A stretch of DNA of 64,000 bases from an uncultured Dehalococcoidales bacterium (GTDB lineage Bacteria > Chloroflexota > Dehalococcoidia > E44-bin15). The stretch lies in the NCBI GenBank assembly GCA_964443325.1, contig CAYUCL010000004.1, positions 5,885 through 69,884 on the forward strand. Reading direction: 5' to 3'. Shown here in pieces: positions 8,863-43,272 of the stretch. The stretch's first letter is position 1. Each line of letters starts with the position of its first letter. Made by a program: the position numbers and the translations under genes. The notes beneath the pieces were generated by a model. It was given only the letters and a program-made list of their open reading frames with translations. It made no database searches and was not told where the DNA came from.

Positions 8863-10083
8863 ATGGCAAACCATCTTGCAATCGATGTGCTGGACACCGA
8901 AGAGGCTAAAATGGCTCGTTCGCTGGCACGACAGTTCGTGGACAACGAGATCCTCCCGGTGAGGCAGCAGATCGACGACGACAAGGATCATAGCAAGGTC
9001 ATCGAACCATTGTTCAGGAAGATAATGATTGAACTTGGCATGGGAAGAGTCATGGCGGCAGACCAAACTTTGGCCTTGACCAATCAAATGGGATTTCTGG
9101 AGGAGCTGTCCCGTGGCGATAGTGGCATAGCCGTTGCCATGGCGTGCACTGGCTGGTGCCTGTTTCCCATCAGAATTGATCCATATAGAAGACCGGACCT
9201 GATAGAGGAACTGGCTGGCGTTTTCCCCGAGGACGAAGTTGCATTCGGCTGTTTCGCCATGACGGAACCTGAAGGTGGTTGCGACATCGAGAATCCTCGG
9301 ATGGAGGGACACAAAATCCACACCACCGCACGCCTTGATGGTGAGGAGTGGGTGATAAACGGGGTTAAGCAGTGGCCCACCAATAGCGGTGTATCTTACC
9401 TTTATCTCACCGTGTGCACCACCGATCCCAACCTGGGAGATGATGGGATCGCCCTTATCTACGTCCCTTATCCTATCGATGGTGTCTCCTTCGGCAGGTT
9501 CGAGAACAAGTCGGGGATGCAGGCAGATAGAAACTGCTCCATCTTCTACGATAACGTGAGGGTGCCCAAGAGGTATCGAGCAGCAGGGCCAGGGGATGAT
9601 GCCAACCTTCTTCACCAAAACCTGGTCCTGGGTTCCATCGGCAGCGCTGCGATGTCGATAGGAACAGCCCAGAACATCTTTGAAATTGTTACCGATTACG
9701 CCACAAAAAGGGTGGCCGGTGGGAAACCGATCAAGGAGCACAGTGTAATTGCATGCAGCTTGGCGGACATGGTCACCGGTATCGAGACCGCCAGGACCTA
9801 TGCATTAAGTGTTTCCTACATGTGGGATCGCCCTGAGATATACGGGCCGCGATGGTCAGCGGAGATGTTGGCCAAATCAAGAATTGCCAAGACCTATGCT
9901 GCCGATATAAGCGTCATGGTGGCCAACAGGGCGATGGAGATGATGGGCTCCTATGGCTATACCAGGGACGCAGACGTGGAGAAGCACTGGCGAGACAACA
10001 AGATGATGCAACAGTGGCTGGGAGGGTCGCACGTGGCGCGGCTGGACATCGCCCGTCACTTTTGCAATCTGGAAACGCTTTAA
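8863..10083 (+). CDS. Acyl-CoA dehydrogenase family protein
   Basis: ACAD fold, 406 aa, with conserved N-terminal and middle-domain regions. Confidence 0.7.
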   Translation: MANHLAIDVLDTEEAKMARSLARQFVDNEILPVRQQIDDDKDHSKVIEPLFRKIMIELGMGRVMAADQTLALTNQMGFLEELSRGDSGIAVAMACTGWCLFPIRIDPYRRPDLIEELAGVFPEDEVAFGCFAMTEPEGGCDIENPRMEGHKIHTTARLDGEEWVINGVKQWPTNSGVSYLYLTVCTTDPNLGDDGIALIYVPYPIDGVSFGRFENKSGMQADRNCSIFYDNVRVPKRYRAAGPGDDANLLHQNLVLGSIGSAAMSIGTAQNIFEIVTDYATKRVAGGKPIKEHSVIACSLADMVTGIETARTYALSVSYMWDRPEIYGPRWSAEMLAKSRIAKTYAADISVMVANRAMEMMGSYGYTRDADVEKHWRDNKMMQQWLGGSHVARLDIARHFCNLETL

Positions 10084-21748: not shown

Positions 21749-21837
21749 CACTATTTTTATTGATATTGACAGTAGATAGGAACGAGCCTAGACTTATCAT
21801 TGGATATGGATATACGAAATCTGAATAGTGCCCTGGA
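21749..21837 (+). repeat. Direct repeat, left copy (~90 bp); includes a truncated duplicate of the 5' end of the 24027 gene
   Basis: CACTATTTT...ACAGTAGATAG-GAACGAGCCTAGACTTATCATTGGATATGGATATACGAAATCTGAATAGTGCCCTGGAA matches 23970–24059 with a few substitutions and one indel. It encodes MDIRNLNSALEGQ* from an ATG at 21805. Confidence 0.85.
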
Positions 21838-21948
21838 AGGACAATGATAGATAAGGAAAAAGGAAATGAGTTTTAAAAATGAACCACAGCAAAAGATTGA
21901 TATTGAATAAGTAGAAGAGGTTCATACCAAACCAGTTTTATACAATTT

Positions 21949-23969: not shown

Positions 23970-24059
23970 CACTATTTTGGGGACATTTACAGTAGATAGA
24001 GTACGAGCCTAGACTTATCGTTAAATATGGATACACGAAATCTGAATAGTGCCCTGGAA
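23970..24059 (+). repeat. Direct repeat, right copy (~90 bp), spanning the promoter and 5' end of the 24027 gene
   Basis: See the left copy at 21749–21837. Confidence 0.85.
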
Positions 24060-31767: not shown

Positions 31768-32168
31768 ACAAACGCCACAGGTTTCAGAGAGAGTCAAGAG
31801 GGTCCCACACGCGCCACGTGTCATTGCGAGGAGCGGCAGCGACGAAGCAATCTGAGCGACGTATTACTAATAGATGAGCTTGCTTCGATGCCACTTGGTC
31901 CCTGTCCGCCTTGCGGATTCCGATACCCCGTTCGTCCTGAGCCTGTCGAAGGGTTTCCCTTCTAGCACAGATCAAGGTGTGTCCCTATAAGCACATCCCA
32001 GAGTGGGTGAAAAAAAATAACAAGTACGCTGCGAAGCAGATATCATAGGGATGGGGTAAGGTTTCATAAACGAGTACAGCCACTTGCCAATGTTGGTCGA
32101 AAGTGGTAGCATTTTGGTACCGCAAAATGGTGCATATAGCTTAGATTTCGCCACATTGTTGTCGTCAG

Positions 32169-32243
32169 GGGCTCGTAGCTCAGCGGCAGAGCGATCGGCT
32201 CATAACCGATTGGTCGTAGGTTCGAATCCTGCCGAGCCCACCA
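32169..32243 (+). tRNA. tRNA-Met (CAT), elongator-type (could alternatively be tRNA-Ile2)
   Basis: Acceptor GGGCTCG/CGAGCCC, anticodon loop CTCATAA, T-loop GGTTCGAATCC, CCA encoded. It lacks the initiator hallmarks. Confidence 0.8.
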
Positions 32244-32252
32244 CGAAATGGT

Positions 32253-32290
32253 CCCCCCTGACTTACAAGGGGGATTTTTTGTTTTTGTTG
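32253..32290 (+). terminator. Rho-independent terminator after tRNA-Met
   Basis: A CCCCCT...AGGGGG hairpin followed by TTTTTTGTTTTTG. Confidence 0.75.
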
Positions 32291-32572
32291 ACAACCATAG
32301 TTGCTTCATGATATATTCCTGAACGACTGATAAGCTCTCTTGTAGTTTTCCGTGAAGAGCTTCTTTACTCGTGGTCAGGTCATTTCGGCCAGACCCCATT
32401 ATTTTGGCGTGAAAGTGCGCCTCGGGGTCTGGCCTGTTCTTATCTACGATTGTGCTTGATTGCGCTTTATTTTTGCAGTAGCAATAGATTGAACAATATG
32501 GTAGTTTATGGTATAGTTTGGTATGAACATATTATATGACTATCGATTCATACAATGCAATAAGGGGGAGCG

Positions 32573-32827
32573 ATGACCAGAACTGTTAAAGTAACTCTGA
32601 GCTTACCACATGGATTACTTCGCTTTGCTGATGGATTGGCTGCCAGGGAAAAGGTTAGTCGCAGCAAATTCATAGCTGGTGTTCTACAGAAGCTGGCTGA
32701 CAATGAAGAGGAACGTCTAATGGCAGAAGGCTATCTGGCTATGGCAAACGAAAACCAGGAATTTGCCGAGACTGTTGTGCCATTGGTTGATGAAGTATTA
32801 TCGGATTGGAAGCGAAATGGCCATTAG
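32573..32827 (+). CDS. Ribbon-helix-helix (CopG/MazE-like) antitoxin
   Basis: 84-aa N-terminal RHH (TVKVTLSLPHGLLRFADGLAAREKVSRSKFI). The gene overlaps the mazF start. Confidence 0.65.
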   Translation: MTRTVKVTLSLPHGLLRFADGLAAREKVSRSKFIAGVLQKLADNEEERLMAEGYLAMANENQEFAETVVPLVDEVLSDWKRNGH

Positions 32828-33158
32828 CCGTGGTGAGATATACTGGGTAAACTGGAATCCGGGAAGGGGTAGAGAGCAGGTCGGCATACGACCTGCTCTC
32901 GTTATTCAGAACGATACAGGCAATCAATACAGTCCGACGACCATCGTTGCTGCTATTACTACAGCCCCAGTCAAGGCATATCCATTTATCGTGCCCATTA
33001 CAGCCTCTGAAAGCGGATTGCCGCAGGACAGCAGTGTGAATCTCTCTACCATATTGACTGTCTCGAGAGATAGACTGAAAGATAAGTGTAGTGAGCTCAG
33101 TGCCCAAAAGATGGCCGAAGTGAATGATGCGATCAACAAGAGCCTGGCACTGGATTGA
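32820..33158 (+). CDS. mazF: MazF/PemK-family endoribonuclease toxin
   Basis: RGEIYWVNWNPGRGREQVGIRPALVIQND...TIVAAITT fits the PemK/MazF fold. The ATG at 32820 overlaps the antitoxin by 8 nt; the tracked ORF begins 57 nt earlier. Confidence 0.8.
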   Translation, partial: AISRGEIYWVNWNPGRGREQVGIRPALVIQNDTGNQYSPTTIVAAITTAPVKAYPFIVPITASESGLPQDSSVNLSTILTVSRDRLKDKCSELSAQKMAEVNDAINKSLALD

Positions 33159-33250
33159 AACAAACGTAGTGTCGAGGTTTCGCTCGTTCGTGGTAGCAAT
33201 ATAGATATAAAGCCTGTCTGACTCTGCACACAAGGAGATAACAGCCCCTT

Positions 33251-33385
33251 GATCCGTGAGTCCGGATTCAAAAGAGTCGTATGTTAGTTGGTTTTTTCTG
33301 AGGCGTGAAGGTCCTTCTGTGAAGGATTCCTTCACCAAAGCTGAGGGAGAGGACTCCCTCAGTCCTCAAGAAGAATCCACGGATT
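33251..33385 (+). repeat. Dispersed ~130-bp structured repeat element, copy A (MITE-like or small RNA)
   Basis: About 90% identical to 41830–41960. Internal hairpins GTGAAGG..CCTTCAC and GAGGGAG..CTCCCTC, with short inverted termini (GATCCGTG … CACGGATT). Confidence 0.7.
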
Positions 33386-33473
33386 AAGGAGCCAATCAAG
33401 TATCGATAAGAGCGTTGTGTATGCTATAATACTGGTGTATCACGATGGAAGGGGGGACTATGGGTATTGAATC

Positions 33474-33800
33474 CTATAGTTGCCCCTTCTGCTTTTCAAA
33501 CTTCCATCGATCATAGTATATGAACATGATATTACATCTAGCAGCCTTCCTTAACAAATGAGAACAACTATCCTGTCGGCACGCTATAACCAATTTGAAT
33601 ATATCCACACTGCGCAAATAATCCACTAAACATGCTATATCTCCATCGCCTGTTATGACTACAGCCTTATGGTTATTGTTAATAATTATCATTGCGTGTA
33701 GAACTATCTCGGCATCACAATTCCCCTTGATTTTTCCGTCAAGCAATGGGAGCACAGTCTTGTAGACTAGAGTGTACTCATAATCTTTTATGTCACTCAA
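33474..33800 (-). CDS. NYN-domain (LabA-like) protein, probably a truncated fragment
   Basis: GNCDAEIVLHAMII...AVVITGDGDIACLVDYL matches the C-terminal half of NYN/LabA domains. It lies in an AT-rich region, and 108 aa is short for the family. Confidence 0.5.
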   Translation of the reverse strand: MSDIKDYEYTLVYKTVLPLLDGKIKGNCDAEIVLHAMIIINNNHKAVVITGDGDIACLVDYLRSVDIFKLVIACRQDSCSHLLRKAARCNIMFIYYDRWKFEKQKGQL

Positions 33801-33900
33801 ATAATATTGTCAACATTTCAAATTGATCCACTACCGGATTTTTGTTGTTGTTATTGACAGTCCCCCTACCCTAAATTAGAATGAGGTAAGACGGTGAAAG

Positions 33901-34605: not shown

Positions 34606-36018
34606 ATGAGAACGATTGGCTATTTTCGAGTAACCGAAGAGACTGGAAGGTCCCCCTCACTGGTGGAGCAGCAGGAGGGTTTTGCCCGCTTTTGCCAGGA
34701 ACGGGGTTACCAGCCGGTAATGACATTTGTTGATACGGGCTCAACAGGGAAAGTTGGCCGAACTCAGTATCAGCGCATGCTCAGCTACATCCGGAGGGAT
34801 GGAACGGACACTGTAGTTGTGGTGAAAAGTCTTAGCCACCTTCACCCCGACGTGCAGGAATTGATGTATCGCCTTATTGAAATTGATGCCCTCGGGGCAA
34901 AGGTTCTCTCAATCGATGAAGAGCTTGCCAGCCCCTTGGAAACGGTTATCCAGATTTGGTCTACCCGGCGCCAGAGTGGAATAAGAGGGGATGCTGTGAG
35001 GGAGGCGATGAAGCTCAGGGCAGTCAGAGGAAAAGGATTGGGCAAGCCACCCTATGGCTATAAGCTGGGTGCCGACAAGAGGCTGGAGATCGTCCCTGAG
35101 GAGGCAGCCAATGTAGAACTCATCTATCAGCTTTATGTTCAAAAAAACATGGGCGTGCGCCTCATCGCTCGATACCTGAATGAGCAGGGCATCACCACCA
35201 GAAGAGGTGGCCTGTGGAGCATCGTTGGCATCCGAGATATCCTGCGCAATCGGGCATATCTGGGGACATCCTCCCGTTTCGGCTTCAGGGTTCCTGACAG
35301 CCACCGACCGATAATCAATCATGAAACCTTCAACAAAGTGCAGGAACGACTTACCGCCAAGACAAAGCCAAGGGGTCGCGTCCAAAGGTCGCCCTTCCCT
35401 CTATCAGGTCTGGCTTACTGTGGATACTGTGGCAACAGGATGACCGGCGTGAACCGCAGTCAAACCTGGACAACGCTCAAGAAGGGAGGGAAGAGGAAGG
35501 GGGAGTATCGCTACTACCAGTGCCAGTCGAGAACTAATCAAAGCGTTTGCCAATACCATACAAGGAGAGCTGAAGATTTAGAGGGCTTTGTGCTCGGTAC
35601 ACTACGGAGTTATAACAACCTTGAGGCTCTGGTACAATTGACGAAGGTGCGTGATTTCAGTGACGAACCGTCAGAGCACACGCGGCTAGAGAGAAAGCTG
35701 AAGACTCTGGATCGAAAATTCCGAGATCATCTCAACCAGGCGACCGATGGTGCCATCCCCTTGGAAGAATTCCGTGTTGTGAGTGGGGATTTGATTTGGG
35801 AGAGGCGGCTTTTGGAGGAAAGGATCGCCCTTCTTAAAGCTGAAGCAAAGCAGGAGATAACCTCCGAGCACCGGAAGGATTATATGTTGGAGAAGCTAGA
35901 AGAGCTTCAAGAGCGATGGGACACCATGACCTCACCGGCAAGAAAAGCGTTGCTTCAGCATATAATCGAACGCATTGTTGTCTACGACGACCATGTGGAA
36001 ACTATCCTCAGGCTGTGA
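34606..36018 (+). CDS. Large serine recombinase homolog with substituted catalytic residues (probable pseudo-recombinase)
   Basis: Resolvase-like N-domain (GYFRVTEETG) followed by a recombinase domain (GKPPYGYKL) and a zinc ribbon (CGYCGNRM...CQSR). The nucleophile Ser is replaced by Thr, and the DRLGR motif is replaced by SLSHLHP. Confidence 0.6.
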   Translation: MRTIGYFRVTEETGRSPSLVEQQEGFARFCQERGYQPVMTFVDTGSTGKVGRTQYQRMLSYIRRDGTDTVVVVKSLSHLHPDVQELMYRLIEIDALGAKVLSIDEELASPLETVIQIWSTRRQSGIRGDAVREAMKLRAVRGKGLGKPPYGYKLGADKRLEIVPEEAANVELIYQLYVQKNMGVRLIARYLNEQGITTRRGGLWSIVGIRDILRNRAYLGTSSRFGFRVPDSHRPIINHETFNKVQERLTAKTKPRGRVQRSPFPLSGLAYCGYCGNRMTGVNRSQTWTTLKKGGKRKGEYRYYQCQSRTNQSVCQYHTRRAEDLEGFVLGTLRSYNNLEALVQLTKVRDFSDEPSEHTRLERKLKTLDRKFRDHLNQATDGAIPLEEFRVVSGDLIWERRLLEERIALLKAEAKQEITSEHRKDYMLEKLEELQERWDTMTSPARKALLQHIIERIVVYDDHVETILRL

Positions 36019-36458: not shown

Positions 36459-36846
36459 TGAAGGTGGCCAGGTAAACCGGGTGACCGCTCCCCGATTATC
36501 GGGGGGAGGAAAGTCCGAGCTCCACCGGGCAGGAGGCTGGGTAACTCCCAGGCCCCGATAACGTGAGTTATCGGGGACGGAAAGTGCCACAGAAACACAC
36601 CGGTCGCCTTAGGCGACTAAGGGTGAAATGGCGAGGTAAGAGCTCACCGCCCCGGTGGTGACACCGGGGGCAGGGCAAACCCCCTCCGGAGCAAGACCAA
36701 ATAGCGGGGAAGAGGACGCCCGGCCTCGTTACAACCCCCGGGTGGGTCGCTTGACCCTGATGGTAACATCAGGGCTAGATAGATGGTCACCGCCCCAACA
36801 CTGTTGGGGTACAGAACTCGGCTTATAGGTTTGCTTGGCCGGCTCT
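36459..36846 (+). ncRNA. rnpB: RNase P RNA (bacterial type A)
   Basis: Conserved blocks GGAAAGTCCGAGCTCCACCGGGCAGG, AGTGCCACAGAAA, GGTAAGAGCTCACC, AGGGTGAAATGG and ACAGAACTCGGCTTA. P1 pairing GGCCAGG…CTTGGCC. Confidence 0.9.
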
Positions 36847-36856
36847 TATATATACA

Positions 36857-37645
36857 ATGGCGCATCAGATGTATTCAACTTACCCAATCGACGACCTCAG
36901 GACGAGATTCATCGGCCAGAAGACCCTCTACTATCCGGTTACCTCCTCCACTATGGATGTAGCAAAACAGGCGATAAGAGATGGTGCAAGAGAGGGTACC
37001 ATCATCATTGCAGACTACCAAACCTCCGGCCGAGGGCGTCTAGGCCGCAAGTGGATTACCTCTCCAGATGACAGTATTTTGCTCTCCATTATCCTCTACC
37101 CAGAGATGGAAGATCTCCGCCTGCTCAACATGGTCGCTGCTCTTGCTGTTGCCCAGAGCATTGAGAAGCTTACCGACCTCAAGCCGATTCTTAAATGGCC
37201 CAACGACGTCCTTATCGAGGGGAAAAAGGTAAGTGGTGCCCTGATTGAGAGCGATGTCCAGGGAGAACAAGCCAATTCCGCCATCGTGGGCATCGGGTTA
37301 AATGTCAATCTCGATCCATCATCGATGCCCGAGATTTCAGAAACCGCTACCAGCCTTAAGGAGATGCTTGGGCGGGATGTTTCCCGCCTGAATATACTCG
37401 AGTCCTTGCTTTGCGAATTCGAAGAGCTATGTCAGGCATTGCGCCACGGTGAGCCTATCCACAAGGAATGGCAACGGCGACTGGATACCATAGGCAGAGA
37501 GGTTTCGGTAAAACAGGGTAATGAGGTTTTGGAGGGCTATGCTGAATCGGTCGATAAGGATGGGAACCTGCTTCTGCGGTGCCCTGACGGCACCCTAGCA
37601 ACGATTATAGCCGGGGATGTCACGCTCAAAGCGAAGAGCTATTAG
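36857..37645 (+). CDS. birA: Biotin—[acetyl-CoA-carboxylase] ligase (group I, no HTH)
   Basis: GRGRLGRKW, KWPNDVL..GKKVSGAL motifs. Confidence 0.85.
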   Translation: MAHQMYSTYPIDDLRTRFIGQKTLYYPVTSSTMDVAKQAIRDGAREGTIIIADYQTSGRGRLGRKWITSPDDSILLSIILYPEMEDLRLLNMVAALAVAQSIEKLTDLKPILKWPNDVLIEGKKVSGALIESDVQGEQANSAIVGIGLNVNLDPSSMPEISETATSLKEMLGRDVSRLNILESLLCEFEELCQALRHGEPIHKEWQRRLDTIGREVSVKQGNEVLEGYAESVDKDGNLLLRCPDGTLATIIAGDVTLKAKSY

Positions 37646-39609
37646 GCTAGAAGACCTGCGCCCTCCAATTTCTTAGCAATCTCGCCAAGATTTAATTTTT
37701 CCAGTTTAGCCTTTGTTTGAAAACCAGTGGCTATATCCCAACCCCGGATTTGGTAATACTCATCTTTCATCTTTTCAAACTGGTCCCGTTCAACAACCAT
37801 CCCCTTTCTGGATAGAACCTCGCCATCCTTGCCAGGAACTATGCAATTCGGGTTGCCATAATCGCCTTTCAACGGGACGGTGAAATTGAACTCCTCTAGA
37901 GAATCATGCTCCCTTCCTTCGTGTCCTTCCCTGGCGAGGATGGCCCGCTGCAGATTCAAGACCCTCTCCCCAATTTCATATAGACCCTCCTCACCCACAT
38001 CCTTTCCCGTTACTGCCGCCAAAACCTGGCTCTCTAGAGAAGGGTCACCGACGTGGTCCGCAGATAGCGTGCTATGAATAATAGGCCAGTAGAAATCACA
38101 CAGAATGAGGCATTCCTTAGCGTACTGGCGGTCCTGAATCTTGGCTGCGGCCAGGGCCTTTCCTTCATATGTGGAGAAGTCTGCTGCTATTTCACTCCCC
38201 CAGAATTGTTTACCTATTGCCCGCATAACCTCAGATGTAACGTAGATATTCTCCATCCCCAAGGTCCCCACAGCCCAAAACATAACCAGCGCACTTATCT
38301 CGTGAAGCTGCTGAATGGGCAATCTTGGCTCCATCGCGTAGAAAAGGCCAGTGGTAATATATAACCTGGGCCCATAGATGGCATTGGAGTCATTTCTAGT
38401 AATATAATCTGTAAGCAACGCCTGGCCCTTGCTGCCGAGGGTTTCGGCAGCTTTATGGGTGCCTTCAGCTAGCACATCCCCAAATCCATCACGGTGAGCT
38501 ACTTTCCACAGAAATGTTTCGATAAATTCCTTGCTCCCCAGCTTAGAGAGAGGAATACCGGTTTGCTCATCAGTTAAGAGCTTTGCCTGGTAGCACCTGG
38601 AGAGCCACATGATCATGGTCTCAACGGCACGGGTATCGACTCCATATTCATCGCAGAGTTTGTTGGCTTCAAAGGGAACCTCGTTTATTTCGCCGTAATA
38701 GCGTTGCGCCCGGGCTTGATAGACCAAGCCAGCCTGACACATGAATTTCCCCGTGATCCCACTCATCGCGGTATAGTTTGCTCGCATACAGCCGCTGATG
38801 CAGCCGTAACATATATCTTTCTTGAGTTTATCTGGATCCACCACTGTGGGTATTATAGCTGAGTATAATTCAGGTCTGTCCTTTGCTTCTCGACGCAGCC
38901 GTTTCCTCAGATTTGTAACTCTCTCCGCATCAGCCACCTCAACCCTTCTTTTGCTTCCTCTAACCGCGATGGCCTTTAAATTCTTGGAGCCCATCACAGC
39001 TCCCAATCCACCCGAGCCAGTGGCATCATTATCGGCTAAAACAGTGGCAAAGGTCACCATATTTTCACCGGCTGGGCCCACAGCCACCACCCGCACTGAT
39101 TTGCCCAACTCGTCCTTGAGTCTCTCACGGCACGAAATAGCGCCTTGGCCAACAAGATGAGTTGCCTCCCTTATTTCTACACGATCATCATTGACCCACA
39201 GGTAGACTGGCTTATCCGCCTTCCCATAAACAACCATGCCATCATAACCAGCGAATTTAAGCTCAGCACCCCAAGAACCGCCCAGGTTGCAATAGGAGAA
39301 TTGGTTGTTAATGGGGGATTTTCCATAAACTTGCCATCGAGAACCAGCGAAACCGGGAACGCCACCAAGGGGACCCGTTATGAAAATGAGTCTATTCTCT
39401 GGATCGAATGCTGTAATACCTGGGGGAACCTCATCCCAATAGATCTTTGCCGCTACCCCCCTTCCCCCGAGAAATAGCTCTTCATAACCAGCGGTGGGTA
39501 CTTTGTTGACATCCCCGGTCGAAAGATTCACGTATAAGATATTTCCGGCATATCCTACAAAATGGGTCATTGCCCCCCTAATTCGCTTGGGCTGCTCGCC
39601 CATGTCCAA
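37642..39609 (-). CDS. Aldehyde:ferredoxin oxidoreductase family (tungstopterin)
   Basis: AOR N-terminal domain and a 655-aa length. Conserved Cys-containing regions are present. Confidence 0.8.
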   Translation of the reverse strand: MDMGEQPKRIRGAMTHFVGYAGNILYVNLSTGDVNKVPTAGYEELFLGGRGVAAKIYWDEVPPGITAFDPENRLIFITGPLGGVPGFAGSRWQVYGKSPINNQFSYCNLGGSWGAELKFAGYDGMVVYGKADKPVYLWVNDDRVEIREATHLVGQGAISCRERLKDELGKSVRVVAVGPAGENMVTFATVLADNDATGSGGLGAVMGSKNLKAIAVRGSKRRVEVADAERVTNLRKRLRREAKDRPELYSAIIPTVVDPDKLKKDICYGCISGCMRANYTAMSGITGKFMCQAGLVYQARAQRYYGEINEVPFEANKLCDEYGVDTRAVETMIMWLSRCYQAKLLTDEQTGIPLSKLGSKEFIETFLWKVAHRDGFGDVLAEGTHKAAETLGSKGQALLTDYITRNDSNAIYGPRLYITTGLFYAMEPRLPIQQLHEISALVMFWAVGTLGMENIYVTSEVMRAIGKQFWGSEIAADFSTYEGKALAAAKIQDRQYAKECLILCDFYWPIIHSTLSADHVGDPSLESQVLAAVTGKDVGEEGLYEIGERVLNLQRAILAREGHEGREHDSLEEFNFTVPLKGDYGNPNCIVPGKDGEVLSRKGMVVERDQFEKMKDEYYQIRGWDIATGFQTKAKLEKLNLGEIAKKLEGAGLLA

Positions 39610-39660: not shown

Positions 39661-40419
39661 TTACTTCTTTTTATCTGGCAGGAAGGCGCTGAGCAGGTCC
39701 AGCGGCAAGGGGAACACCAGGGTTTGGGTTTTCTCCGTAGCGATCTCAGTGAGAGTCTGTAGATAACGTAGCTGCAGCGTTGTCGGCTCCCTGCCGATGA
39801 CTTCGCCTGCCTGAGCCAGCTTCTCGGAAGCCTGTAGCTCACCCTCGGCGTGGATGATCTTGGCTCTCCTCTCCCTTTCCGCTTCAGCCTGGGCTGCCAT
39901 AGCCCGCTGCATCGTGCTGGGTAGTTCCACGTCCTTGACCTCCACCACACTCACCTTAATCCCCCACGGCTCCGTCTGGTCATCGATAATCTGCTGTAGT
40001 TGCTGATTTATCTTATCACGGTGCGCCAGCAGCTCATCAAGCTCCGATTGACCGAGCACGCTCCTTAAGGTGGTCTGGGCGATCTGATAGGTCGCCAATC
40101 TGTAGTCATAGACCTCAATCACTGCAGCCTCTGGATGCATCACCCTGAAGTAGACCACTGCATTGACCTTGAGGGTGACATTGTCCCTGGTGATGGCCTC
40201 CTGAGAGGGGACATCCATGGTAATGACGCGAGTGTCCACCTTACGCATCTTGTCAAAGAAGGGTATGATGAAACGCAATCCTGGCTTTCTTGTGCTCTCC
40301 AGTCGTCCCAGTCGAAACACCACGCCAGCCTCATACTGATAGATGACCTTTATGGCAGACGTCAGCAGAAAGAGCACTACTATCGCAATTATGACATATA
40401 CTATCCAGTCCATCTTCAT
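39661..40419 (-). CDS. SPFH/band-7 (stomatin-like) protein
   Basis: N-terminal TM helix followed by an SPFH domain. Its start overlaps the end of the upstream nfeD gene by 4 nt. Confidence 0.85.
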
Positions 40420-41723
40420 TCACCTCCTGTTTTATTTTCCCTGGTTACCACTAGTCTTAGTCCATCGACCTTTGTTATGACCACCTCCTCTCCTGATTCA
40501 ACTTTTCCTTCATCTACTGTTGCCTCCCAGAGTTCCCCGTGCACAAAGACCTCACCTTTTGGGTCAAGGGGTGTTCTAGCCACCGCCACCTTGTCCACCA
40601 TCGCGTCTCGCCCTGTCTGCTGCCGTGTTCGATGAGTGCGCAGGATCGATGCAATGACGAAGATGAAAAAGGCGGTAACAGCGATCACCACCCCGGCTAT
40701 AAGGCCAGGATTTATACGAAACAGTGGATCGGTCATCAAGACCATCGAGCCTATGGTCAAAGAAGCGATACCCCCCAAAGCAAGCAAACCATTGGTTGCA
40801 GTGAACATCTCCGCAATAAACAGACCAAAGGCAAGCAACACCAGTATAATACCAATATAATTAACCGGCAGCATCCCCAGGCCATAGAAGGCGAGCAAGA
40901 GACAGATTGCACCGACAACTCCGGGAAAGATCGTCCCTGGATTGAATAACTCTAACATTATTCCAAGCATGCCCAGGCTCAAAAGGATATAGGCAATATT
41001 GGGGTCAGTGATGGCGAATAGTAAGCGCTCTATAGAGCCCATGCCGATGTAATCGACACTGATACCCTTGGTCTCGAGGGTGACAACCTCCCCACTTAAT
41101 AGTGTTACCTGCCATCCATCAAGCTGAGCCAGCAGGTCGTCCATATTATCGGCCATAATATCGATGACCCCTAGCTCCAGGGCCTCTGAAGCGGGGCTTG
41201 ACTTGCTCTCCCTCACCGCGGCTTCAGCCCAGTCAGCGTTGCGCCCTCTCGTTTCAGCAATGCTTCTAATGTAAGCGACGGCGTCGTTTACCACCTTCTT
41301 CTCCATGGTTTCATCCATCCCGTCCTCGCCAAGGGCAACGGGGTGAGCCGCGCCAATTTCTGTTGCCGGCGCCATCGCCGCCACATGAGCCGCCAAAGTG
41401 ATAAAGGCCCCAGCCGAAGCAGCCCTCGCCCCCGAAGGCATGTAGACCACTACAGGAACATCGGCTCCCATAATATGTTTCACGATATCGCGCATCGAGC
41501 TATCAAGCCCCCCCGGTGTATCCATCTCGATGATACAAGCGGTAGCCCCGTGCTCCTCAGCCAGCTCAATCCCCCGGTCAATATAGCCAGCCAGCACTGG
41601 AGTGATCGCCCCATTAACCCTCAGGACAGCGACTTGGGAGCTCTCGGCGCTCACCCCTCCAGATACCAGGGTAAGAAACAGCCCAAGAAATATAACGAAA
41701 AGCCAAAACTTTCTCATAATCAA
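40416..41723 (-). CDS. NfeD-like membrane-bound ClpP-class serine protease
   Basis: N-terminal ClpP-like domain, membrane helices and a C-terminal OB domain. The stomatin operon partner follows it. Confidence 0.8.
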
Positions 41724-41829
41724 CGCTGCCGAAGTTTATAGGTTTATTATAGTGGCGTCAAGGTCTTTTTACAATTGAGCACCCTTGGAAAGAGCAAGGC
41801 GTCACCAATCATATGAACGCCGCTTAATA

Positions 41830-41960
41830 CGTGATTCCAGATTCAAAAGACTCACCTATCAGGTAGCTCTTCCTGAGGCGTGAAAGTCCTTCTGTGAAGG
41901 ATTCCTTCACGAAAGATGAGAGAGAGGACTCCCTCAGCCCCCAGAAAGACGCCACGGATC
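41830..41960 (+). repeat. Dispersed ~130-bp structured repeat element, copy B
   Basis: See copy A at 33251–33385. Confidence 0.7.
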
Positions 41961-42036
41961 AAAGATGGCTGTGTAGCGTTGAAGGCTTAAGGCAATTGGT
42001 GTAGAATGGCCTCAACTTTGTAAAAAGGCGGCAAGA

Positions 42037-43272
42037 ATGAAGGTATCCAAGTGTAAAGGGATGGTCGATCTGCTTCCTCTTGACATGACCAAGTTTCGGC
42101 ATATAGAGCAGGTGTTTCGAGACTCCTGCCTAAAACGGGGCTATGATGAGATAAGAACACCGACTCTCGAATATCTCCACCTTTTCACTGCAAGTGGGAC
42201 GCTGACCCCAGATATGCTTGGTAGAGTGTATTCCTTCCTCGACTGGGATGGCTGGAGCGGGGAGAGGGTAGTTCTAAGACCTGATGGTACTATACCTGCT
42301 GTCAGGCTTTACCTGGAAAAACTAGAGAGCGATAAGATAACGAAGCTTTTCTATGTAGAAAACACCTTCACCTTTGAGGAAACTGGAAGCGAACGGAGGG
42401 AACGCTGGCAATGTGGCGCTGAACTGATCGGCAGTAGCGAGCCACTAGCTGACGTGGAGCTAATGCTTTTGGCCACAGAGGTTCTGAGAGAGCTTGGCAT
42501 TGGTCCGCTGATGGTGAGGCTGTCCCACGCTGGCTTAATCAAGACGCTCCTGGCGGAGCTCGGGCTGGGGGCAGCCGAGCAGACAGAGATATTCGATCGG
42601 GTCTTGGAGGGAGACATAAAGGCATTGGGTGCAATAAAGACCGATAATGCTGAGCTAGAGAGAGCTCTAGCCCTTTTGCTGGATGTCAAGGGCATCTCGC
42701 CTGAATTTGTGGGGAATGTCCGGGCTCTATTGGGGAAAGCCTTACCCAATTTTGAGCCTAGCCTCAATGACCTTGCCAGTATTACTGAAATGCTCAGTGC
42801 TATGGATTGCCCTTATGAAATCGACATCACCTCTGGGAGAGGCTTCGAGTACTACACCGGCATTATGTTTCAATTCTATTCCTCCACAGAGCGGGTAGGG
42901 GGAGGGGGAAGGTACGACGATTTGATCCCTCTGGTGGGCGGCCCACCTATCCCCGCCTCTGGATTTGCCCTATATGTGGATCGACTAATGGATATGTTGA
43001 AGATGGAGGCAATCTCATATCAAAGAGTTTTAGTCAAGCCCCTGGCCAGTGATATGAGCGTATTGAAGACAAGCTTGGAGACCGCCCGCCTTTTGAGAGA
43101 GGCAGGCTACATTACCGAGCTGGATTTAGGTCAAGAAAAACCATCTGGTTATCGATGGCTTCTTTCTATGCCCAAACATGGCCTATTCCAGTTGGTAGAT
43201 CAGGTTACCGGGAAAAAGAGTAAGGCATCTTCTCAAGCAGAGGTCTTGAAGATAATGGAGGAATCCAATTGA
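42037..43272 (+). CDS. hisZ: ATP phosphoribosyltransferase regulatory subunit (HisRS paralog)
   Basis: Class II aaRS-like fold without an anticodon-binding domain. It sits immediately upstream of hisG and overlaps its start by 4 nt. Confidence 0.8.
   Translation: MKVSKCKGMVDLLPLDMTKFRHIEQVFRDSCLKRGYDEIRTPTLEYLHLFTASGTLTPDMLGRVYSFLDWDGWSGERVVLRPDGTIPAVRLYLEKLESDKITKLFYVENTFTFEETGSERRERWQCGAELIGSSEPLADVELMLLATEVLRELGIGPLMVRLSHAGLIKTLLAELGLGAAEQTEIFDRVLEGDIKALGAIKTDNAELERALALLLDVKGISPEFVGNVRALLGKALPNFEPSLNDLASITEMLSAMDCPYEIDITSGRGFEYYTGIMFQFYSSTERVGGGGRYDDLIPLVGGPPIPASGFALYVDRLMDMLKMEAISYQRVLVKPLASDMSVLKTSLETARLLREAGYITELDLGQEKPSGYRWLLSMPKHGLFQLVDQVTGKKSKASSQAEVLKIMEESN

Follow-up and report, generated by a model that had tools for sequence, protein, structure and literature searches.

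The two related sequences located in intergenic gaps of the 64-kb stretch of DNA analyzed here (hereafter the window) are probably copies of a 143-bp MITE, i.e. a non-autonomous DNA transposon without a gene of its own, which would be moved in trans by a putative transposase. The family was previously undescribed and is confined to a narrow clade of uncultured Dehalococcoidia; our literature search found no paper linking Dehalococcoidia or Dehalococcoides to MITEs. It displays the features by which such elements are recognized, namely small size (143 bp) with no frame open across the copies, terminal inverted repeats, target-site duplications, dispersed copies and insertion polymorphism. In the mechanism favored here, a transposase encoded elsewhere in the genome would bind the 12-bp ends (CCTTAATCCGTG...CACGGATTAAGG) and move the element, each insertion would duplicate 4-5 bp of target DNA, and the 72-nt core would outlast the erosion of its arms as a remnant or module standing on its own. 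Such movement might proceed by either cut-and-paste or copy-paste chemistry, with the existence of a mobilizing transposase, and any family to which it might belong, being presumed. The sequence-only reading had called the element MITE- or sRNA-like; its termini, flanking direct repeats, dispersed copies, filled and empty sites and non-coding nature uphold the first of these designations, and the second is left unsupported.

The repeat is real, with both copies lying co-oriented on the plus strand (Table 1) and their exact 143-bp extents being set by anchoring on the conserved termini. A repeat search recovered 33231-33390 and 41806-41965 as a two-copy family, and MAFFT and nhmmer agree on both copies (nhmmer E = 1e-55 for copy B), with no third copy being detected by nhmmer in the 64-kb window. 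The two intergenic placements and the shared orientation originally proposed were thereby borne out, with true extents slightly wider than the 33251-33385 and 41830-41960 first delimited; the figure of ~90% identity holds for the 72-nt core (92%) but not for the entire element (80% gapless identity over 143 bp) or its arms (69-71%). The flanking genes are also those named at the outset: Pfam places copy A between a MazF/PemK gene (32763-33158, plus strand) and a truncated NYN ORF (33474-33800, minus strand), and copy B between NfeD (40416-41723, minus strand) and a HisS-like protein (42037-43272, plus strand), which is taken to be HisZ. The DNA between the two copies encodes a bacterial class A RNase P RNA (36469-36841; 291 bits), an ordinary housekeeping feature, and elsewhere the window contains a 57-nt direct repeat whose two occurrences (21782-21838 and 24003-24059) are 93% identical and 2.2 kb apart.

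Table 1. Coordinates, in the window, of the probable MITE copies and their parts
Feature	Position	Strand	Basis or remark
Probable MITE copy A, complete, 143 bp	33247..33389	+	termini anchored; nhmmer E = 5e-57; fold
Left terminal inverted repeat, copy A (CCTTGATCCGTG)	33247..33258	+	11/12 vs reverse complement of 33378-33389
Core module, copy A, 72 nt	33297..33368	+	TGAGG/CCTCA closing stem round two hairpins
Hairpin 1, copy A (GTGAAGG TCCTTC TGT GAAGGA TT CCTTCAC)	33305..33335	+	nested 7+6 bp
Hairpin 2, copy A (CTGAGGGAG AGGA CTCCCTCAG)	33341..33362	+	9 bp
Right terminal inverted repeat, copy A (CACGGATTAAGG)	33378..33389	+	matched to 33247-33258
Putative target-site duplication AGCC, left of copy A	33243..33246	.	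4-bp chance match 0.5%
Putative target-site duplication AGCC, right of copy A	33390..33393	.	pairs with 33243-33246
Probable MITE copy B, full length but decaying, 143 bp	41822..41964	+	termini anchored; orthologs in relatives
Core module, copy B	41872..41943	+	hairpins 41880-41910, 41916-41937, one G-to-A change each
Left pentamer ACGCC, putative degenerate target-site duplication of copy B	41817..41821	.	relatives 4/5, window 3/5
Right pentamer ATGGC, copy B (ACGAC in relatives)	41965..41969	.	pairs with 41817-41821

The consensus of the element begins with CCTTAATCCGTG and a 5' arm of ~50 nt, which is followed by TCTGAGGC, hairpin 1 (GTGAAGG-TCCTTC-TGT-GAAGGA-TT-CCTTCAC), a GAAAG linker and hairpin 2 (CTGAGGGAG-AGGA-CTCCCTCAG); the core ends with TCCTCA, after which a 3' arm of ~20 nt carries the terminal CACGGATTAAGG. 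Taken whole, the element is an imperfect palindrome, in which a short stem (TGAGG/CCTCA) closes around the two hairpins. Both of the internal hairpins formerly pointed out are present in copy A, and hairpin 1 has its stem shortened to 9 bp in two relatives. The 12-bp terminal inverted repeats match at 12/12 positions in a copy from a metagenome contig (L009), at 11/12 in copy A, where short inverted termini had already been noticed, and at 8/12 in copy B, in which they are degraded. The same termini recur in all full-length copies, all of which are 143 bp long, with the sole exception of a 154-bp copy containing an 11-nt internal duplication. The lack of coding potential was likewise confirmed: there is no conserved ORF, since the frames open in one copy differ from those in another and are broken elsewhere by stops or the 11-nt duplication, and non-synonymous changes occur in those frames that some copies leave open. 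A protein-coding mini-gene was hence rejected, the 43-aa ORFs being conserved neither in frame nor in openness.

Direct repeats flank the termini. In copy A AGCC abuts both of them (...ataacAGCC/CCTTGATCC...ATTAAGG/AGCCaatc, with the slash marking the element boundary), while in L009 an exact TGATC is found on both sides (...GATGATC/CCTTAAT...ATTAAGG/TGATCTC). The orthologs of copy B have ACGCC on the left and ACGAC on the right (4/5 positions), and copy B itself ACGCC and ATGGC (3/5). By chance, flanks so spaced in the window match over a full 4-mer in 0.5% of cases, over a full 5-mer in 0.1% and at 4/5 positions in 1.5%. Target-site duplication could be tested at three sites only, with clean duplications seen in only two copies and differing in length (4 and 5 bp).

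The enzyme that would recognize these termini is hypothetical, as no autonomous element with the same termini occurs in ~300 kb of fetched DNA. Similarly, the window and the loci fetched from fragmentary MAGs contained neither a second pair of termini 0.7-3 kb apart nor a transposase gene. Termini starting with CC and a duplication of 4-5 bp are features of the IS1380 family, which may be a candidate mobilizer; several other IS families also make duplications of 4-5 bp. ISEcp1, a member of the IS1380 family, makes 5-bp duplications (PMC2887853). This family is a lead only, since no transposase gene, full-length IS or other partner element with matching termini was found.

The phyletic distribution of the element was surveyed by an exact-pattern scan of one genome per species in 185,579 species, which recovered the core in only three Dehalococcoidia MAGs; a further match in a Nitrospirae MAG (L007) is a chance hairpin match and not a copy. 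A pattern scan of metagenomes added one true copy (L009), with two other matches (L010 and L011) being chance hairpins, and no matches were obtained in viral contigs by scanning or in plasmid and phage collections by blastn. A protein search with three concatenated pseudo-frames returned a single match, a spurious 68-aa gene call; this call pointed to a further MAG, the fourth (JBARQE01), in which one locus (L012) contains five copies within 10 kb. The MAG CAZZJX01 has four copies, and the window two in 64 kb. Further copies thus occur at unrelated sites in related MAGs and metagenome contigs, and they occupy at least seven distinct insertion sites, with unrelated flanks and neighboring genes and in both orientations relative to genes. 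The neighbors include a histidine kinase, a pilin-like gene, an alpha/beta hydrolase, a glycosyltransferase, leuA with a DUF3795 gene, and hrcA-grpE-dnaK. The presence of only two copies in the 64-kb window might by itself suggest a chance similarity or a one-off segmental duplication in this genome; the probability of either is negligible in light of the nhmmer E-value of ~1e-55 and the at least ten further copies at other sites in at least five related genomes, and these related loci refute it. The hairpins are kept in every related copy found, and the combination of only two copies and unconserved hairpins, proposed earlier as the outcome that would tell against the element, is not what is observed.

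All the carriers are close relatives, the compared neighboring proteins being 84-95% identical to those of the window. No copy was found at the L025, L031 and L032 loci, which come from more distant organisms (CT398-like or HisZ proteins 78-85% identical), or in the L035 locus from a close relative. The window's species is also represented by GCA_034430535.1 and several JGI/Logan assemblies, in which, as located by exact-protein look-ups, both copies are identical to those of the window. All of the comparison genomes are fragmentary MAGs, and three contigs (L003, L006 and L033) end inside the element, as is expected for a multi-copy repeat.

Comparisons of orthologous sites revealed both filled and empty states. 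Copy B has orthologs in JAUWRG01, DAOUVR01, CAZZJX01 and L023 and is missing from L031 and L032; with the element the nfeD-hisZ spacer measures 313 nt in five lineages, and without it 142-146 nt in L031 and L032. Two promoter-like sites bound the insertion, one for nfeD (TTGTAA-17-TATAAT, 41774 to 41746, minus strand) and one for hisZ (TTGAAG-17-TAGAAT, 41979-42007), and both blocks are conserved in L031 and L032, where copy B is absent. As it lies between these two divergent sites, copy B is upstream of both and outside both 5' UTRs, which rejects its interpretation as a riboswitch or other 5'-UTR element. It differs from its orthologs at 11-14 of 143 nt (7.7-9.8%), compared to 3.5-6.5% for the flanking intergenic DNA; copy B is decaying in a near-neutral manner at nfeD-hisZ, diverging at least as fast as the intergenic DNA around it. 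It is best read as an older insertion, which became fixed prior to the divergence of four to five sister species and is harmless between the promoter-like sites.

In contrast to copy B, the site of copy A is without the element in every relative examined (JAUWRG01, CAZZJX01, L025, L030 and JBARQE01). In JAUWRG01 the NYN gene is intact and unrelated DNA takes up this position, CAZZJX01, L025 and L030 are without the NYN segment, with MazF leading straight into the next gene, and in JBARQE01 tRNA-Met leads straight into the next gene. This variability among relatives indicates that the DNA next to tRNA-Met in which copy A lies is a variable accessory segment, and copy A is best read as a fairly intact insertion in such DNA. 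The empty sites of both copies are not base-precise, the relatives showing replacements or spacers of variable length. An att site or integration scar was considered for copy A and rejected, as the supposed repeat (D7) is a similarity of one tRNA to another and the element recurs at unrelated loci.

The surroundings of copy A show several other peculiarities. The segment from tRNA-Met to the CT398-like gene (window 32243-33900) varies across L021, L025, L026, L027 and L030 and is empty in JBARQE01; the relatives other than JBARQE01 have an antitoxin-MazF pair with or without NYN, with AbiEii, Cas6/RAMP or SLFN/AlbA genes upstream, and the segment looks like a defense-island hot spot. Just downstream of it lies a conserved large serine recombinase (34606-36018). 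The NYN ORF of the window is truncated to 108 aa, compared to 168 aa for its JAUWRG01 ortholog (L021 5325-5831), and the gene is absent in CAZZJX01, L025, L030 and JBARQE01. At the position of copy A JAUWRG01 shows ~110 nt of unrelated DNA containing an inverted repeat of its own (L021 5130-5250), and further left a GTAG-headed palindrome that is missing from the window (L021 4975-5060); the presence of several small elements suggests that this spacer is a hot spot for them. Right of copy A the window displays a promoter-like site with a TG-extended -10 (33403-33430), a strong RBS (GGAAGGGGGG) and an 18-codon ORF (33460-33516; MGIESYSCPFCFSNFHRS), which overlaps the NYN ORF of the other strand at that ORF's 3' end; all of these are conserved in JAUWRG01 (L021). 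Further along, an AFOR (aldehyde:ferredoxin oxidoreductase) gene (37642-39609, minus strand; window 37727-39381) is present in the window's species, L025 and L031 and missing from the otherwise syntenic JAUWRG01 contig (L002/L021). A second, unrelated family of short repeats (CCGTTCGTCCTGAGCCTGTCGAAGGG and variants) is common to the window and the related MAGs, with sites at window 31900-31960, upstream of tRNA-Met (32169-32243), and at L027 1-170, L012 9480-9530 and 9918-9953, and L037 9040-9190; it often accompanies the core module of the 143-bp element within one intergenic cluster.

The MITE mechanism does not by itself explain the spread or persistence of copies consisting of the core alone. 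Such copies, which have neither the 12-bp termini nor visible duplications, are found in L008, four times in L012 and twice in L037, where they lie within clusters that also contain further families of short palindromic repeats, including GTAG-headed ones. Three of the L012 cores are identical at 72/72 positions, and the core of copy A differs from them by one base. Across 14 cores, stem positions have changed less than unpaired ones (11/54 versus 9/18; Fisher p = 0.03). Hairpin 1 also switches form, for downstream of dnaK L012 has the long version, and at the corresponding site of L037 the hairpin has been rebuilt with 9 bp and an AGGA loop; the short form is found as well between hrcA and grpE in L012. 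At the end of the L001 contig (2513-2804) a complete 143-bp copy is immediately preceded by at least two tandem 127-nt units without the 3' arm; transposition does not account for this arrangement, which is possibly an assembly artifact. Together these observations could be accommodated by a mosaic repeat of the REP/BIME/BOX type, in which the 72-nt core would be the true unit, the 143-bp form one composite arrangement, and the spread due to a Y1 (RAYT-like) transposase with hairpin DNA as its substrate, to recombination or to gene conversion, the last of which would suit the alternation of hairpin 1 and the retention of the core while the arms differ at orthologous sites. We regard this alternative as improbable. 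The sharp 12-bp inverted termini with abutting 4-5 bp repeats are not made by hairpin-dependent Y1 transposition, and no RAYT gene was seen among the fragmentary MAG loci. Classical REPs are palindromes of 20-40 nt with a conserved GTAG head, often arranged as inverted doublets; the core, at 72 nt, has two different hairpins and no such head, and the GTAG-headed repeats neighboring it in L012, L021 and L035 are separate families. Moreover, upstream of hrcA L012 keeps the core with one arm and its terminus, while L037 and L033 at the same site have an almost unchanged core and have largely lost the arm, indicating that core-only copies can arise by erosion of a fuller copy.

Under the MITE interpretation the core-only form can arise by decay, yet the core itself is spared; this sparing and the switching of its hairpin are features that fit either gene conversion among copies or selection on the hairpins at the DNA or RNA level. 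In keeping with the latter, the core might be a selected functional module, for instance one that acts as an attenuator, affects the stability or processing of RNA, or is bound by a host protein. This idea, which we consider unlikely, draws on the near-invariance of the core while the arms erode at the same orthologous site, the retention of the hairpin shape even where hairpin 1 has been rebuilt shorter, and the co-directional build-up of copies in and around the hrcA-grpE-dnaK heat-shock operon, with all five L012 copies running in the direction of these genes and one of them placed between hrcA and grpE. In L035 the region downstream of dnaK (8900-9335) is instead taken up by a long array in which roughly 60-nt units with abundant G and C tracts (CCCCCTTACCCCCTTTACCAAAGGGGGG...) follow one another in tandem, the same place that contains the core-containing mosaic in L012 and L037.

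A stronger version of the RNA proposal would make the entire element a functional structured RNA, either a multi-copy sRNA or a cis-acting mRNA stabilizer, processing site or attenuator, for which the minus strand of the window would most likely be the sense strand. The predicted folds are indeed very stable. The plus strand of copy A folds at -67.9 kcal/mol (z = -7.5 versus shuffles); copy B, with a G-to-A change in each hairpin, folds on the plus strand at -39.2 kcal/mol, no better than shuffles (z = -1.4), and still folds well on the minus strand (-59.2 kcal/mol). Likewise, the proportion of paired cells is 98.2% on the minus and 96.4% on the plus strand, and on the minus strand hairpin 2 followed by CUUUC is weakly terminator-like; the shared direction of the five L012 copies and the conservation of the core amidst decaying arms might be cited in the same vein. 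Nevertheless, this reading has very little probability, for a range of RNA-level signals fail to appear. Rfam gave nothing at the gathering score for both copies on both strands, and only noise at E<=10 (14 bits, E >= 1). In RNAalifold analysis of seven full-length copies 0/48 pairs were changed on both sides on either strand. The check for covariation across copies that had been suggested at the outset also came out negative: the 28 pairs examined across 12 distinct cores show no double, i.e. compensatory, change on either strand, with counts equal to those of shuffled controls, in a test for which the structure was specified by hand and the copies are too similar for a strong negative. Stem transitions keeping a G-U pair, counted as independent events, favor the minus over the plus strand by only 6 to 3 (p = 0.5); an initial 6:1 ratio for the minus strand fell to this value with all 14 cores, and the choice of strand from wobble pairs was abandoned. 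No promoter-like or terminator-like site is present inside copy A, and inside copy B there is no promoter-like site and only a weak terminator-like match on the minus strand. The orientation of the copies to neighboring genes is inconsistent, close relatives differ in having or lacking the element at housekeeping loci, copy B is decaying, and both copy B and the L012 copy near hrcA lie upstream of promoter -35 boxes, the latter also upstream of the CIRCE operator.

Seen as a MITE, the element is reminiscent of several well-known families of intergenic repeats. Closest in its overall plan is the Correia/NEMIS element of Neisseria, which is similarly non-coding and ~100-155 bp long, has inverted termini, a short target duplication and a long imperfect hairpin, lacks its own transposase and occurs as many intergenic copies in either orientation. 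However, there is no sequence similarity between the two; the Correia termini are ~26 bp long as opposed to 12 bp, the target duplication is TA as opposed to a variable 4-5 bp, and the host here is an uncultured Dehalococcoidia clade. The promoter, IHF-site and RNase III functions are points of comparison with Correia elements that have no counterpart evidence in the present one. ERIC/IRU sequences of enterobacteria are again intergenic imperfect palindromes of ~127-143 bp, present or absent at orthologous sites and with shorter and longer variants, but they too show no sequence similarity; they typically occur in transcribed regions without clear target duplications, unlike this element with its defined termini and flanking direct repeats. 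BOX/RUP of Streptococcus pneumoniae and the BIMEs/REPs of E. coli share a modular build with the present family, in which the core may be found by itself, accompanied by one arm or both, or repeated in tandem, and joins further repeat families in clusters downstream of operons, for example that of dnaK. In these cases the differences lie in the REP head motif and size, which are not seen here, the lack of a detected RAYT and the behavior of the full-length form, which is like that of a DDE-type MITE.

In conclusion, the uncultured Dehalococcoidia of this clade probably harbor miniature transposons that are, or recently were, active, together with several further families of short palindromic repeats concentrated in particular intergenic hot spots. 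In practical terms the family accounts for contig breaks and spurious small "genes" in the MAGs of the clade, and it offers a marker for strain-level insertion polymorphism. If the core were to act on the transcripts of the heat-shock operon, it would represent a regulatory module delivered by a transposon in an uncultivated lineage; otherwise, the element would be ordinary selfish DNA, a common kind of genomic parasite.
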